From Candidatus Collierbacteria bacterium GW2011_GWB2_45_17 (GTDB taxonomy: Bacteria > Patescibacteriota > Microgenomatia > UBA1400 > MFAQ01): DNA of 64,000 bases. The notes under the pieces are model-generated. The model did not search any database and was not told where the DNA came from. It saw nothing but the letters and a program-made list of their open reading frames with translations. Below, piece by piece: positions 51,125 through 56,546 of this stretch. The stretch covers positions 9,381-73,380 of the forward strand of contig LCKO01000001.1 in the NCBI GenBank assembly GCA_001001485.1. The letters are read 5' to 3'. Position 1 is the stretch's first letter, and the number at the start of each line of letters is the position of its first letter. Made by a program: the position numbers and the translations under genes.

Positions 51125-52405
51125 ATGAATACTTTATTAGCCCCCTTGCGCGCCTTATTCAAGATTAAAGATCTCAGGAATCGCCTTATTTTTACCGCGA
51201 TTATTATTGCTATTTTTCGTTTAGTGGCTCACATTCCGGCTCCCGGAATCAATTTAGCCGCTCTGAAACAGCTTTTTGATGGTTCTGCCTTCCTCTCCCT
51301 TCTTGATATTTTTTCTGGCGGTACGCTGACTAATTTTTCCGTCATGGCTCTTGGTCTTAATCCCTACATCAACGCCTCTATCATTATGCAGATGATGGGT
51401 ATGGTCGTTCCCAAGTTGGAAGAGCTGCAAAAAGAAGGGGACTATGGTCGCCAGAAAATTAATCAATACACTCGCCTTTTAACTATCCCTCTTTGTTTCT
51501 TTCAAGGGATCGCTTTAATATTTCTTCTTCGGGGTCAAGGACTTACCACCACCACCGATCCTCTAAAACTCGCCGCCATTGTCTTTACCCTCGCCGCCGG
51601 CACTTCATTTCTCATCTGGCTCGGTGAACAGCTCAACGACTATGGTGTGGGCAACGGTATTAGTTTGATTATCTTTGTCGGTATCGTTACCCGTTTGCCG
51701 GTCGCCGCCGCTCAAATGTTAGCCACTATTGACCCCACCAAAATATTTACTTACTTAATTTTTGCTTTTTTTGCTATCGCCTCGGTCTATGCCATTGTCC
51801 GCGTCGGCGAAGCCGTTCGCGAAGTTCCCATCCAATCGGCGAGACGCGGCGCCTCTTTTACCTCGACATTGGGCAATCACCTGCCTCTCCGTCTAAATCA
51901 AGCCGGCGTGATCCCGATTATCTTCGCTGTTTCTTTTATGTTGATTCCGAATCTTCTTGGTCGGGTCTTCGCCGGTTCTGGTCAAGCCTGGTTAGCCGGA
52001 GTCTCCCGAAACATTACTCTCTATTTGGCGCCGGAATCCATTCTTTATAATGCCCTCTACTTTGGTTTAGTAGTTGCCTTTTGTTATTTCTATACTGCCG
52101 TGGTTTTTAATCCCGAAAAAATCGCCAAGGATCTTCGTCAGTCCGGCTCTTTTATTCCCGGTATCCGTCCCGGTCCCAACACGGTTGATTACCTAAATTT
52201 TGTTCTAAATAGAATTACTTTGGTAGGAGCCTCATTTTTGGGTCTGGTGGCCGTCTTTCCCTCCATTATTTCCGGGATGACCGGCATTACCGGGTTGGCC
52301 ATCGGCGGCACCGGTATCTTAATCGTCGTCTCCGTCGTTCTGGAAATTCTTAAATCCATCAACTCTCAGCTCTACATGTACAGTTACGATAAATTTCTCG
52401 ACTAA
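51125..52405 (+). CDS. secY: Preprotein translocase SecY
   Basis: 10 TM helices, SecY signature. Confidence 0.9.
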
Positions 52406-52460
52406 AATGAAAATAATTTCAGCAAGACTAGTCTCTGGCTAGCAAGTGACAAATCAATAA

Positions 52461-53294
52461 ATGGTCAAGAAAAGATACAATCTCAAAGTTAAAGGCCTTG
52501 AAATAAGTATTTTTCAAATAGACAACTCTGATTACGTTTCCCTTACCGATATGGCCAAGTACAAAGATATTTTTAGAAGCGATTATATTTTGCAAAATTG
52601 GATTAGAGGCAAGCATGTCATAGAGTTTCTCGGACTATGGGAAAAACTTTACAACAAAAACTTTAAACCCATCGAATTCGATGGGTTTATGTCAGAGTCA
52701 GGGTCAAACAGTTTTGTCCTGACACCAAAAAAGTGGATCGAGAAAACAAATGCCATCGGTATTATTTCCAGAGTTGGTCGGGGGGGAGGAACCTATGCCC
52801 ACAAAGATATTGCCTTTGAGTTTGCTTCATGGATAAGTGTTGAATTTAAACTATATCTTATTAAAGAATTTCAAAGACTCAAAGAAGAAGAGGGTCTTCG
52901 GTTAGAACAAGGTTGGGATACCAAGCGCACTCTTGCCAAAATAAATTACAAAATTCACACCGATTCTATCAAAGAACATATCATTCCCACAGTTATACCA
53001 AAAACCAAGTCGAGTACAATTTACGCCAACGAAGCAGACGTATTAAACGTAGCTTTATTTGGTCAAACAGCCAAAGATTGGCGAGTAAAAAATCCAAACA
53101 AAGATGGCAATATTCGAGACTACGCTAATGTAATGCAACTAATCATCTTGGTCAATCTGGAAAGTTTTAATGCTGAACTAATTAGGCGAGGTATTTCACA
53201 ATCTGTAAGGTTAGTTGAATTAAACAAAGTTGCAATCTTTCAAGCAAGATCGTTAATAGGTAACAGCCAAATTAATAAAATAGGTAAAATATAA
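52461..53294 (+). CDS. KilA-N domain protein
   Basis: GGTYAHKDIAFEFASWISVEFKLYLIKEF is the conserved KilA-N core. Confidence 0.6.
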   Translation: MVKKRYNLKVKGLEISIFQIDNSDYVSLTDMAKYKDIFRSDYILQNWIRGKHVIEFLGLWEKLYNKNFKPIEFDGFMSESGSNSFVLTPKKWIEKTNAIGIISRVGRGGGTYAHKDIAFEFASWISVEFKLYLIKEFQRLKEEEGLRLEQGWDTKRTLAKINYKIHTDSIKEHIIPTVIPKTKSSTIYANEADVLNVALFGQTAKDWRVKNPNKDGNIRDYANVMQLIILVNLESFNAELIRRGISQSVRLVELNKVAIFQARSLIGNSQINKIGKI

Positions 53295-53296
53295 AT

Positions 53297-53857
53297 ATGA
53301 ACATCATTATTCTCGGTCCACAAGGATCCGGCAAGGGCACTCAAGCCCAGTTACTGGCCGAAAAATTTGGTTTAACCAATATTTCTTCCGGAAAACTTCT
53401 TCGTGAGGAAGCCAAAAATGATACCGAAAAAGGCAGATTGGTTGCCGACCTTCTCACTACCGGCGCTCTTCTTCCCTTCGACACCGTCCTTGAAGTCACC
53501 GAGCCAGTACTACTTCAGGCAAAATCCGGATTTATTATCGATGGCACCCCGCGAGACTTAATGCAAGCTGAGTATCTTGATTGGTATCTATTAGAGCGTC
53601 AGATAAATATCGACAAGGTGATCCTTCTGAACATTCCTAGAGAAGTTAGTCTGGATAGACTGTCCAAAAGAGCCAAAATTGAAAACCGCTCCGATGATAC
53701 TCCGGAAGCCATTCACGAAAGACTGGATATTTACGAGAGAGAAACCCTTCCCGTTGTCGAGTATTATCGAAAACAAGGAAAACTTATCGAAATCGATGGT
53801 ACCCCCGATATTCAAAGTATCTTCCTAGACATTGTCACCAAACTATCCACCAAATGA
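53297..53857 (+). CDS. adk: Adenylate kinase
   Basis: GPQGSGKGTQ P-loop; 186 aa. Confidence 0.9.
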   Translation: MNIIILGPQGSGKGTQAQLLAEKFGLTNISSGKLLREEAKNDTEKGRLVADLLTTGALLPFDTVLEVTEPVLLQAKSGFIIDGTPRDLMQAEYLDWYLLERQINIDKVILLNIPREVSLDRLSKRAKIENRSDDTPEAIHERLDIYERETLPVVEYYRKQGKLIEIDGTPDIQSIFLDIVTKLSTK

Positions 53858-54588
53858 CCAAACTTCAAGTTATGACCGAAGGCGGCAAGCGTCTGGGTCG
53901 GATCAAAAGTCAGTTGGCTGATATGGTCAAAGAAGGTGTTACTCCTCTGGAAATTGATAATTTTGCCGAGAAACTCATTAGTGAAGGAGGAGATAAACCT
54001 TCATTCAAGATGGTTCAGGGCTACAAGTACTCTACCTGTATCAATATCAACGCCGGCATGGTTCATGGAATCCCCGGGAAAACCCCTTTTAGACCAGGTG
54101 ATGTAGTCAAAGTAGATATGGGACTTTTTCATGAAGGTTATCATCTTGATACCTCCACCACCATTCAAATTCCTCCTTATACCCCTGAAGTCAGCAAATT
54201 CCTTAAGGTCAGCCAAGAGTCTCTCAAAGCCGCTATCTTTGCCGCCACTCCCGGTAACACTGTTTACGACCTTGGAGTGGCCATGCAGACCGTGGCGGAA
54301 AGCGCGGGCTACAACGTCATTCGTGACCTCACCGGCCATGGGATCGGCCGTCAGCTTCACATGGAGCCTTTTATTCCTTGCTTCGCCGACAAGAGAAACA
54401 AGAAGTTTGTTCTGGCCGTAGACCAGACCGTGGCTATCGAGGCTATGGTAACTATGGGGGACTGGCATCTGGTCGAAGATCCGGACGGCTGGACTCTGTC
54501 TACCCAAGACGGCTCTCTCACGGCCATGTTCGAAGAAACCGTCTACCTCACCCCCAACGGTCCCCTCATCCTCACCGCCGTGTGTTAA
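53854..54588 (+). CDS. map: Methionine aminopeptidase type I
   Basis: Pita-bread fold motifs. Confidence 0.85.
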   Translation: MTKLQVMTEGGKRLGRIKSQLADMVKEGVTPLEIDNFAEKLISEGGDKPSFKMVQGYKYSTCININAGMVHGIPGKTPFRPGDVVKVDMGLFHEGYHLDTSTTIQIPPYTPEVSKFLKVSQESLKAAIFAATPGNTVYDLGVAMQTVAESAGYNVIRDLTGHGIGRQLHMEPFIPCFADKRNKKFVLAVDQTVAIEAMVTMGDWHLVEDPDGWTLSTQDGSLTAMFEETVYLTPNGPLILTAVC

Positions 54589-54630
54589 AATACCCATCTT
54601 CTCGCAACTTAAAATTATAGGAGGCTTCCC

Positions 54631-55008
54631 GTGTCCAAAAACAAAGTTCTTGTCCTTCATTCCGCAGACAGTTCTGCTCGAGCCGAAACTTTCAAAAAAT
54701 GGCTGGAAAACCTGGATTTTAGTGTTTCAACCATGAACGACTTAAACAAATCAGAATCCGAGTCCGCCTACCGTCTTTTACAAAAAGCGATCGAAGGAAA
54801 CGATCGTGTTGTTATCTTGGTTTCCACCGGGATTTTTAACAGTTGTGTTCTGAGGTTTGGTATAGGCTACGCCCTCGGTGCCGGCAAGAAGATAGTCTCA
54901 GTCGTCAAGGACACCGATAGGGTTATTATGCCCTCTTGGTACGCCAATCTATTTGTACCGTTAAATAGCTACGACGAGGGCGAAATCTGGTCCAAACTGA
55001 AAAAATAA
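54631..55008 (+). CDS. Small TIR-like / SLOG (nucleoside 2-deoxyribosyltransferase-like) fold protein
   Basis: KVLVLHSADSS (TIR beta-A-like), then DRVVILVSTGIFNSCVLRFGIGYALGAGKKIV; SD AGGAGG with GTG start; own terminator. Confidence 0.4.
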   Translation: MSKNKVLVLHSADSSARAETFKKWLENLDFSVSTMNDLNKSESESAYRLLQKAIEGNDRVVILVSTGIFNSCVLRFGIGYALGAGKKIVSVVKDTDRVIMPSWYANLFVPLNSYDEGEIWSKLKK

Positions 55009-55012
55009 CTTC

Positions 55013-55037
55013 CCAGCCCCCGAAAGGGGGCTTTTTC
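55013..55037 (+). terminator. Intrinsic terminator AGCCCCCGAAAGGGGGCTTTTT
   Basis: 7-bp GC stem, GAAA loop, T-tract. Confidence 0.65.
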
Positions 55038-55105
55038 TAGCCAAGATTAGCCACTAGCCTAAGCAATATTTGACATTCCGTACACATCGTCATAATATAT
55101 AAGTA

Positions 55106-55402
55106 GTGAAATTTGACTGGAATCCAGACAAAAACAAGCTTTTAAAATTAACCAGAGGGATTGATTTTCAATCAATTGTGCGGGCCATAAAGAAAAAGAA
55201 GGTCTTGTTAGATACGCCACACTTTGATCAAATCAGGTATCCAAAACAAAGAATATTAATTATTTCTATCAAAAGTTACGCCTATATTGTCCCATATGTT
55301 CAAAATGGACCAACACGATTTTTAAAAACTATTTATCCAAGTCGCCGATATTATAAAAAATATTTAAAAAATGCCCAAAAAGCCAAAATTCGATCCCTTT
55401 AA
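55106..55402 (+). CDS. BrnT toxin (DUF497), second copy
   Basis: MKFDWNPDKNKLLKLTRGIDFQSIV...RILIISIKSYAY...FLKTIYPSRRYYKKY. Confidence 0.65.
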   Translation: MKFDWNPDKNKLLKLTRGIDFQSIVRAIKKKKVLLDTPHFDQIRYPKQRILIISIKSYAYIVPYVQNGPTRFLKTIYPSRRYYKKYLKNAQKAKIRSL

Positions 55403-55673
55403 AAACCTAGTTCTGGACGAGTACGAACAAGAATTGGAAGATAGTATCCCAGACGACATTGTATTAACTCCACCCTCACCAGCTAGGCTTGCTATACTCA
55501 AGAAAGCCGCCGAAAATACTCTCAGAGACTTAGAACTTCAAAAAAAGAGCAAAAACATCAATTTGAGAGTCACCGAGGCCACCTTTCGCAACCTAAAATC
55601 AAAGGCCACCAGGCTCGGTTTGCCATATCAAACTCTAGCCTCTAGTATTCTTCACCAATACTCCAGTAAATAG
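55371..55673 (+). CDS. BrnA antitoxin, second copy
   Basis: INLRVTEATFRNLKSKATRLGLPYQTLASSILHQY. Confidence 0.65.
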   Translation: MPKKPKFDPFKNLVLDEYEQELEDSIPDDIVLTPPSPARLAILKKAAENTLRDLELQKKSKNINLRVTEATFRNLKSKATRLGLPYQTLASSILHQYSSK

Positions 55674-55738
55674 TACCCAAATTAGCCACTAGTCAAATGT
55701 GGCTAACTTTGGTACAATACCGTTTGCACAACTAAAAT

Positions 55739-55957
55739 ATGGCTAAAAACCAGATGACTGAGGTAAACGGAGTCGTCTCCGAGTCGCTACCCAATATGCA
55801 GTTTCGGGTAACTCTCGAAGATGGCAGAGAAATCTTGGCTCATCTTGCTGGCAGAATGCGGCTTCATCGCATTCGCGTCATGCCCGGGGACAAAGTAAAG
55901 CTCGAAATGAGCGAATACGACCTGGACAAAGGCAGGATAGTTTACAGATCAAGCTAG
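55739..55957 (+). CDS. infA: Translation initiation factor IF-1
   Basis: S1-like OB fold; 72 aa. Confidence 0.9.
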
Positions 55958-56003
55958 ATTCCGTTTCACTCACCAATAATTATTTAAATAAACTAAAACG
56001 CGC

Positions 56004-56117
56004 ATGCGGGTTCAATCGTCCGTCAGACCTCGTTGCAAGAATTGCAAAATTATTAAACGCCATGGTAAGGTGTTGGTCATTTGTACCAATCCCCGCCATA
56101 AACAACGCCAAGGATAA
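56004..56117 (+). CDS. rpmJ: 50S ribosomal protein L36 (not in the ORF track; found by manual translation)
   Basis: ATGCGGGTTCAATCG... translates to [37 protein letters not shown]. Confidence 0.8.
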
Positions 56118-56120
56118 CCC

Positions 56121-56546
56121 ATGCCCAGACTTTCCGGTATCGATATTCCCAACGAAAAAAGAATTGATATCTCTCTAACCTATATCTATGGTGTCGGTGA
56201 TATGGTCGCCAAAGATATCCTCAAAAAATCCAAGGTGGCTCCTCATATTCGTACCAAAGATCTCTCCGGAGAAGAGTTAAAAAGTATTCAAACTGTCTTA
56301 GACACTCTCCCCACCGAAGGAGAACTTCGTAAAATGGTGCGCGATAATATCGAAACTCTCAAAAGAATTCAAGCCTACCGAGGGACAAGACACTCTATGG
56401 GTCTTCCGGTTAGAGGCCAACGGACCAAAACCAACGCCCGTACCAGAAAAGGCAAGCGAAAGACCATTGGTGCTATCTCCAAAGAAGCCTCTACCGCTAT
56501 CTCCCCCGCTCCGGCCGCCAAGGCTCCTGTAGCCAAAAAGAAATAA
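56121..56546 (+). CDS. rpsM: 30S ribosomal protein S13
   Basis: S13 signature. Confidence 0.9.
   Translation: MPRLSGIDIPNEKRIDISLTYIYGVGDMVAKDILKKSKVAPHIRTKDLSGEELKSIQTVLDTLPTEGELRKMVRDNIETLKRIQAYRGTRHSMGLPVRGQRTKTNARTRKGKRKTIGAISKEASTAISPAPAAKAPVAKKK

Follow-up and report, generated by a model that had tools for sequence, protein, structure and literature searches.

A free-standing TIR-fold protein without the canonical catalytic glutamate, encoded between map and infA in a Candidatus Collierbacteria genome

The stretch of DNA analysed here, referred to as the window, comprises 64,000 nucleotides of contig LCKO01000001.1 from Candidatus Collierbacteria bacterium GW2011_GWB2_45_17. Between map and infA, in the tail of its ribosomal spc/alpha gene cluster, lies an open reading frame (ORF) for a protein of 125 amino acids (positions 54631-55008, + strand, GTG start), designated ORF125. 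On balance, and with a confidence only a little above even, ORF125 appears to be a non-enzymatic TIR protein that acts via protein-protein contacts, is specific to its lineage and is unrelated to the toxin-antitoxin (TA) cassette beside it. An initial annotation of this DNA had instead proposed an NADase or other nucleotide-targeting effector that would form a minimal defence system with a neighbouring BrnT/BrnA pair; this is not supported, the catalytic glutamate having been lost and the TA pair being unlinked.

The TIR-like fold suggested in the same annotation proved to be correct. Alignment of the ORF125 family with hhalign against nine proteins which all pass the Pfam TIR_2 model gave a probability of 98.6% and an E value of 1.2e-15 over 106 columns. 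The AlphaFold2 (AF2) model built from 24 sequences (pLDDT 88.3, pTM 0.84) was tested for the elements of a TIR fold, a parallel beta-sheet A-E with helices A-E, and these were found; Foldseek agrees, the closest structural matches being Hydra TRR-2 and MyD88, both non-enzymatic signalling TIRs. This model supersedes a first run on a 5-sequence alignment, which reached a pLDDT of only 56 and gave uninformative Foldseek matches. Against single library models ORF125 stays below every cut-off: TIR_2 (PF13676) scores 24.0 bits where 28 are required (E 5.8e-5), ThsB_TIR (PF08937) 20.3 bits against 21.2 (E 7.6e-4) and Nuc_deoxyrib_tr (PF05014) 14.3 bits against 28.8 (E 0.045). A housekeeping nucleoside-deoxyribosyltransferase identity, which had been named beforehand as the outcome that would overturn the defence proposal, is not what this last score indicates, and ORF125 is left as a TIR-like protein without a closer assignment. 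TIR_2 and ThsB_TIR are the best Pfam matches, the orthologue P0002 carries a precomputed weak match to PF13676, the best PADLOC matches are weak ones to ThsB models (E 1e-3 to 3e-3), and all of these sub-threshold library matches point to one superfamily. NCBIfam and PHROGs gave no match, and no Pfam, NCBIfam, PHROG or PADLOC model describes the family. Both homology and fold clearly place ORF125 in the TIR superfamily, as a cytoplasmic protein with a single domain. Two other leads were rejected: a single-sequence search of the PDB returned noise only (synaptotagmin and MJ1251, E >0.3), and a Walker-A reading of GAGKK was discarded as its spacing does not fit G-x4-GK[ST].

The family is small. 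A search with the single sequence through 5.8 billion proteins found four clusters, and a profile search of 1.8 billion representatives gave 27 matches, around 15 of which are family members (small proteins of 81-149 amino acids) while most of the rest are ordinary TIR_2 proteins. Altogether a few dozen sequences make up the family, all of them metagenomic and from a single narrow clade, and no relatives were found in the viral contigs and plasmids searched. ORF125 represents subfamily A; paralogues of types B and C are described below.

To our knowledge, all characterised TIR NADases depend on the tryptophan and the glutamate of the WxxxE motif. In the hhalign alignment the invariant glutamate of the canonical TIR_2 set (...SPWLSFEVG...) falls opposite Gly77 of ORF125 (...SCVLRFGIG...), and the tryptophan four residues before it falls opposite Val73. 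The glutamate column is anchored by AbTir (...DWTNYELDG...) and by a TIR-STING protein (...SEWSKFEM...), which align in the same register. In AbTir, W204 and E208 are the WxxxE residues required for NAD+ hydrolysis (PMC10641520). In all members of subfamily A the glutamate column is occupied by G, A, V, P or T and never by D or E, so that the search for a conserved catalytic glutamate, recommended in the initial annotation, ended with a glycine in its place.

A second active-site feature is also lacking: the conserved Pro-Gly of the BB-loop (box 2), with the canonical consensus D-I-x-P-G, is absent from the ORF125 family, whose segment from beta-B to alpha-B is unconserved and of variable length. 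The BB-loop Pro-Gly contributes to TIR assembly and to the composite active site. The structural features of the domain are retained, namely the beta-A strand with His10, Asp13, Ser65 and the G-x-GK-x-I motif of beta-D, and there are motifs specific to the family, F69 and P101-x-W103-Y. Compared with TIR_2 NADases of the AbTir/PdTIR type, ORF125 is homologous and has the same flavodoxin-like TIR fold, sharing the hydrophobic beta-A strand with its His/Ser, the Asp that caps alpha-A and G-x-GK-x-I; it differs in falling below the Pfam threshold, in having Val73 and Gly77 at WxxxE and no BB-loop Pro-Gly, in its length of only 125 amino acids with no fused sensor or effector domain, and in its own F69 and P-x-W-Y motifs. 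Because the glutamate and tryptophan of WxxxE are lost across subfamily A, it is very unlikely that ORF125 is a canonical TIR NADase, and we infer that it would not be an NAD+-cleaving effector.

The genes around ORF125 are arranged as follows.

51125-52405, secY
52461-53294, + strand, KilA-N gene
53297-53857, adk
53854-54588, map (Pfam Peptidase_M24, E 3.6e-35)
54631-55008, + strand, ORF125, stand-alone TIR-fold protein of subfamily A with Gly77 and Val73 at the WxxxE Glu and Trp positions
55106-55402, + strand, BrnT-like toxin candidate, 98 amino acids, isoelectric point (pI) 10.5
55371-55673, + strand, CopG/BrnA-type ribbon-helix-helix antitoxin candidate, 100 amino acids
55739-55957, + strand, infA (IF-1; Pfam eIF-1a, E 1.7e-25), with its own promoter

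Beyond infA follow, in order, rpmJ, rpsM, rpsK, rpsD and rpoA. The Peptidase_M24 and eIF-1a matches confirm that ORF125 had been placed correctly between map and infA, and the features reported for it were all found where they had been described: the GTG start, the AGGAGG Shine-Dalgarno sequence, the terminator, and the peptides KVLVLHSADSS (residues 5-15) and VVILVSTGIFNSCVLRFGIGYALGAGKKIV (residues 60-89). The composition of ORF125 is like that of host genes, with a GC content of 0.44 and a GC content at third codon positions (GC3) of 0.50, the housekeeping genes having a GC content of 0.44-0.50. That ORF125 is a genuine gene under selection, and did not arise as an ORF by chance, follows from its orthologues at 98-28% identity, its dN/dS ratios of 0.23-0.40, below 1, and this host-like composition.

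Related loci, given here as L001 onwards, show the family in the same chromosomal position. A narrower alignment used as the query for such loci had returned one genome locus and two metagenome loci. Wherever the flanks suffice, family genes lie in the slot 5' of infA and are directly adjacent to it in all but one case; the slot is seen in L001-L007, L009, L012, L014, L015 and L016, while L013 has one non-TIR ORF before infA, and L008, too short to reach infA, has the gene directly 3' of map. In L012 and L016 the place of map is taken by a pseudouridine synthase gene in divergent orientation, and the adjacency to infA survives this rearrangement. The source clade is narrow and Woesebacteria-like, SecY being 79-99% identical to that of the window (L009 is a metagenome-assembled genome named Candidatus Woesebacteria). 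Since all the loci come from such close relatives, the shared position is best read as vertical inheritance within this clade.

A hidden Markov model (HMM) scan of all ORFs in the loci revealed paralogues, so that each locus holds one to three copies of the family. B-type paralogues, of 141-158 amino acids, have an invariant glutamate in FL[TI]E[MW], one column off the canonical position, and match TIR profiles more weakly (72%). The C type has 139 amino acids (L017-L019), and more divergent copies occur in L013 and L016. The paralogous mini-TIR copies were located at the following positions.

L009, 3503-3952
L014, 5400-5825
L017, 3484-3903 and 4001-4438
L021, 2029-2469
L013, 4171-4587 (further copy)
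L016, 302-679 (further copy, one gene further upstream than the map-infA slot)

An A-type gene stands alone in the window, L001, L002 and L015, and a B-type gene alone in L021; in L016, and perhaps in L012, an A-type gene lies alone beside infA with a divergent copy beyond the pseudouridine synthase gene. A and B occur together, in either order, in L009 and L014, C and B in L017-L019, and A with a divergent copy in L013. The A-B pairs are 27-40 nt apart with no terminator between them, and B-type copies occupy the same slot. In the window and the related loci the gene is flanked by map, infA, TIR-like paralogues, the TA pair or small ORFs without a match; the small ORFs found in the slot of the relatives yielded no effector domain in Pfam and PADLOC scans, and no ThsA effector, whether of the SIR2/SLOG, Macro or TM type, lies beside the gene in the window or the related loci examined.

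ORF125 diverges quickly. Its identity is 82-85% where that of SecY is 98-99%, 49-52% where SecY is at 89-90%, and 33-35% where SecY is at 79% (measured in L013, as L015 and L016 are without secY). The Nei-Gojobori dN/dS of ORF125 is 0.40 against L001 and 0.23 against L002, compared with 0.01-0.09 for secY, adk, map, rpsK, rpsD and rpoA. These ratios point to purifying selection and to a gene that is not a pseudogene, with a constraint that would be either far looser than in the neighbouring genes or in part diversifying. Fast evolution together with the turnover of paralogues suggests an accessory role, possibly in genetic conflict, rather than one in core translation. A role as a ribosomal or RNA-binding protein was considered and rejected, in view of the fast divergence and of a pI that varies from 4.7 to 9.1 across the family.

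The gene appears to be equipped for its own expression, with these signals.

54583-54591, + strand, putative extended -10 promoter element of ORF125, TGTTAAAAT, inferred from conservation
54619-54624, + strand, Shine-Dalgarno sequence AGGAGG of ORF125, six bases 5' of the start
55015-55037, + strand, intrinsic terminator of the ORF125 unit (7-bp GC stem, GAAA loop, T-run)

The TAAAAT hexamer of the putative promoter overlaps the stop codon of map. The window, L001 and L002 share a conserved block TG[CT]TAAAAT..CCCATCTTCTCGCAACTTAAAA, and the sequence 5' of this block is not conserved; ORF125 thus probably has its own extended -10 promoter, an element which a simple promoter scan, demanding a -35 match, does not list. 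The AGGAGG is kept in L001 and L002 and is similar in L009 (GGAGG). The terminator hairpin AGCCCCCGAAAGGGGGCT at 55015-55032 is followed by TTTTT, and an equivalent hairpin and T-run come after the last TIR-like gene in eight of the nine relatives' loci examined (L001, L002, L009, L012 and L014-L016 among them). In L013 the hairpin follows a divergent paralogue of 138 amino acids, and one further non-TIR ORF with a hairpin of its own precedes infA. In the relatives' loci compared infA always has its own TGnTACAAT promoter. Because of this separate promoter, and of the hairpin and T-run after the TIR-like gene, the adjacency of ORF125 and infA does not reflect co-transcription.

Two observations were made on the leader region. 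Around 30-60 bp of the map-ORF125 spacer that are present in L001 and L002 are missing from the window, and because of this map ends differently there (...LTAVC* in place of ...LTATN* in L001/L002), with its stop codon inside the conserved TGnTAAAAT element. The 5' leaders of ORF125 (GCAACTTAAAATTATAGGAGG, 54600-54630) and of infA (GCACAACTAAAATATG, 55720-55741) have a CAACT(T)AAAAT motif in common, and a similar leader is also found 5' of the A-type gene in L009.

The TA cassette between ORF125 and infA has the following boundaries and signals.

55047-55059, + strand, left copy of a 13-bp direct repeat, TTAGCCACTAGCC, at the left boundary of the TA cassette
55070-55098, + strand, sigma-70-like TA cassette promoter TTGACA-17-TAATAT (10/12 matches; conserved in L002)
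55682-55694, + strand, right copy of the 13-bp direct repeat, within the element 55682-55706
55682-55706, + strand, palindrome TTAGCCAC-N9-GTGGCTAA, whose left arm is the right direct-repeat copy
55690-55718, + strand, infA promoter TAGTCA-17-TACAAT, preceded by TG, with its -35 region overlapped by the palindrome

The toxin candidate comes first and its gene overlaps that of the antitoxin candidate by 32 nt (55371-55402). Such toxin-first, overlapping genes with a ribbon-helix-helix antitoxin resemble BrnT/BrnA, the pair named in the initial annotation. For the antitoxin this stands, as the candidate passes CopG_antitoxin PF12441 (30.3 bits against 28, E 7.5e-7) and weakly matches BrnA models (NCBIfam BrnA_antitoxin_add, E 0.0015). 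For the toxin the match is weak: the N-terminus KFDWNPDKN...GIDF fits the BrnT signature weakly, and the protein lies far below the threshold of Pfam BrnT_toxin PF04365 (14 bits against 34.5, E 0.065; E 0.0056 for the L002 orthologue). It matches PHROG 38250 with an E value of 4e-6, and a comparison by sequence with solved structures in the PDB gave no match.

Several lines of evidence separate this cassette from ORF125. The direct repeat TTAGCCACTAG[CT]C bounds a unit of around 635 bp at 55047-59 and 55682-94, and its two copies are the only ones in the 64-kb window, where 0.06 would be expected. Loci without the TA pair have a single copy, just 5' of the infA promoter. In L001, a locus from a 790-kb contig whose ORF125 is 82-83% identical to that of the window, map, ORF125 and infA are present and the TA pair is not; when the window, L001 and L002 are aligned three ways as DNA, the cassette is cleanly present or absent, L001 being the empty site with the TIR gene intact. 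The cassette is AT-rich, the BrnT-like gene having a GC content of 0.31 and a GC3 of 0.28, compared with 0.44 and 0.50 in ORF125. The TA pair adjoins the TIR gene in the window and in L002-L007, and is absent from the more divergent loci L009, L012, L013, L014, L015 and L016; the co-occurrence of homologues with BrnTA that had been suggested as a check on the defence proposal is thus contradicted by the empty site in L001 and by six other lineages. Because of this empty site, the direct repeat, the separate promoter, the intervening terminator and the low GC content, the TA pair is evidently an independent, later mobile insertion in the infA promoter region and not a partner of ORF125. The 13-bp repeat resembles a target-site duplication or a scar left there by recombination.

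The palindrome is conserved in the closer relatives L001, L002, L009 and L014, and L012 and L015 retain just the left arm; it may be an operator for a regulator of infA. The window and L002 are identical in the 3' half of the TA cassette and also in the DNA of infA and rpsM (55739-56546, dS = 0), while the flanking genes have dS values of 0.15-0.53. This tract of identity indicates what would be a recent recombination event and a mosaic population structure.

A second variable position in the cluster lies between secY and adk, where the window has a gene for a KilA-N protein of 277 amino acids (52461-53294). It matches the PADLOC candidate defence model PDC-S22 with an E value of 2.8e-125 and PHROG 2657 ('transcriptional regulator') with 1e-55, and its GC content is 0.35 compared with 0.45 for the window. 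The gene is present in L002-L004 and absent from L001, L009 and L014, and this patchy presence among relatives marks it as accessory, an insertion at the second position where the ribosomal cluster varies. An ORF of 127 amino acids without a family match follows secY directly in L001 (4115-4498), L002 (2370-2753) and L013 (1084-1467) and is absent from the window (52405-52461); elsewhere the secY-adk slot holds a DUF1749 hydrolase (L017) or an ORF of 148 amino acids (L021). Rfam gave nothing credible around the locus, the only match being a sub-threshold one to a group I intron inside the KilA-N gene (52561-52721, + strand; 18.7 bits against a gathering score of 50, E 0.15), which is probably due to chance.

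In the explanation that we favour, ORF125 would act without catalysis, through protein-protein contacts of the TIR type, as an adaptor or regulator; the contacts could be self-association or pairing, for example with the B-type paralogue where a genome has one. Animal TIRs such as Hydra TRR-2, MyD88 and MAL/TIRAP are assembly scaffolds rather than NADases. ORF125 is 12-14% identical to animal signalling TIRs, with no detectable close sequence relationship, and whereas these sit in receptor or adaptor chains with death domains or ectodomains, ORF125 consists of a single domain. In the literature, searches turned up nothing of direct relevance for TIR domains in Woesebacteria or for bacterial TIRs that are free-standing and non-catalytic.

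A number of points weigh against this explanation. Both structure predictions are models of a monomer, and any specific partner or oligomeric state is hypothetical. The missing canonical glutamate does not formally exclude other chemistry, and the conserved residues H10, D13, S65, S90, P101 and W103 may line a pocket. The HMM scan found no B-type paralogue in the 64 kb of the window, and therefore the gene for any heterotypic partner would need to lie elsewhere, if there is such a partner at all. That the gene stays next to infA even with a different neighbour on its upstream side (L012 and L016) could hint at a link with translation; all the loci come from a narrow clade, and the conserved position may say little on function either way.

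A more far-reaching possibility, though a rather unlikely one, takes the map-infA slot as a whole. It would be the fixed site of a birth-and-death family of mini-TIRs (A, B and C or divergent types) which could together form a self-contained, TIR-only conflict module, with the glutamate-less A type as sensor, inhibitor or decoy partner, comparable to the paired plant TIRs RRS1 and RPS4. The role could be either in immunity or in the interaction of these episymbionts with their host cells, and the module may be anchored beside essential translation genes instead of in a mobile island. Among known systems, Thoeris ThsB proteins (PF08937, formerly DUF1863) are likewise small, mostly single-domain TIRs, often with several fast-evolving tandem paralogues; unlike Thoeris, the loci examined have no ThsA-type effector and ORF125 has no catalytic glutamate, and it occupies a fixed slot of a ribosomal gene cluster, not a mobile defence island.

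It is unlikely, too, that ORF125 serves translation or protein maturation as an accessory factor peculiar to its lineage, acting on IF1, the ribosome or methionine aminopeptidase. Nearly every family member lies directly 5' of infA inside the ribosomal super-operon, this adjacency outlasts the replacement of map by the pseudouridine synthase gene in L012 and L016, and the 5' leader of ORF125, read by eye, resembles that of infA. However, a strong terminator follows the last TIR-like gene in most loci and infA has a promoter of its own; ORF125 evolves 3-30 times faster than the surrounding translation genes, its pI is not conserved, its copy number varies from one to three with either A or B able to be absent, and as all the loci are from close relatives their shared position can be simple inheritance.

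More doubtful still is an enzyme of the TIR/nucleoside 2-deoxyribosyltransferase type that uses non-canonical residues (e.g. His10, Asp13, Ser65 and Cys72) at the C-terminal edge of the sheet on a nucleotide, a nucleoside or a compound related to NAD. Subfamilies A and B both keep H10, D13, S65, F69, K86, P101 and W103 with little or no variation, and ORF125 has a G-Y-A-x-x-x-GK motif similar to that of the group of nucleoside 2-deoxyribosyltransferases, DNPH1 and BcmB-MilB N-glycosidases (PF05014); its GYALGAGKK resembles the G-E-x-G-Y-A...GK of the TIR/deoxyribosyltransferase group. By comparison of the motif with FGIGYALGAGK, we take the glutamate nucleophile of these enzymes (G-x-E-x-G-Y-A) to correspond to Gly77, in the same column as the TIR glutamate. 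The nucleophile or acid position is then a glycine and no alternative acidic residue is conserved; furthermore, H10, D13 and the GK motif are also conserved, for structural reasons, in ordinary TIR_2 proteins, TIR domains score consistently higher than the PF05014 group, and the closest structural matches, Hydra TRR-2 and MyD88, are non-enzymatic.

That ORF125 is a decaying, functionless remnant of a once-active TIR gene is highly improbable. The loss of the catalytic motif, a dN/dS raised relative to the neighbours and a very narrow distribution would fit such a history, but the ORF is intact at 111-133 amino acids in all full-length members of subfamily A, among lineages that have reached saturation at synonymous sites. 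In addition, dN/dS lies clearly under 1, conservation extends to the Shine-Dalgarno sequence, the leader and the terminator, and the conserved core yields a confident fold prediction. Least probable, and largely refuted, is the NAD+- or nucleotide-degrading effector of a minimal defence system with the adjacent BrnTA: the TIR fold, the weak PADLOC matches to ThsB (E ~1e-3), the TA pair next to the gene in the window and L002-L007, and the PDC-S22 candidate defence gene in the nearby secY-adk slot speak for it, whereas the catalytic glutamate and tryptophan are missing from the whole subfamily, the TA cassette is a separate insertion (empty site in L001, own promoter, terminator and GC content), and in none of the other lineages does the gene stand beside a TA module or a ThsA, SIR2, SLOG or Macro effector.

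The case also carries a caution, in that a small TIR-like ORF beside a TA pair is not automatically a defence effector; here the comparison with an empty site and a single alignment column overturned that call. The tiny size of the family limits its wider impact, and a glutamate-less mini-TIR in a fixed slot beside infA should be mildly surprising to a TIR specialist. If the favoured explanation of ORF125 as a non-enzymatic TIR protein is true, it would be a bacterial TIR without NAD+ chemistry that is still selected as a free-standing protein of 125 residues, and it would provide a compact model for scaffold or regulatory functions of TIR domains outside animals and plants. The family would, in that case, also illustrate how a set of accessory genes that evolves fast can be fixed within the ribosomal gene cluster in the reduced genomes of the candidate phyla radiation.

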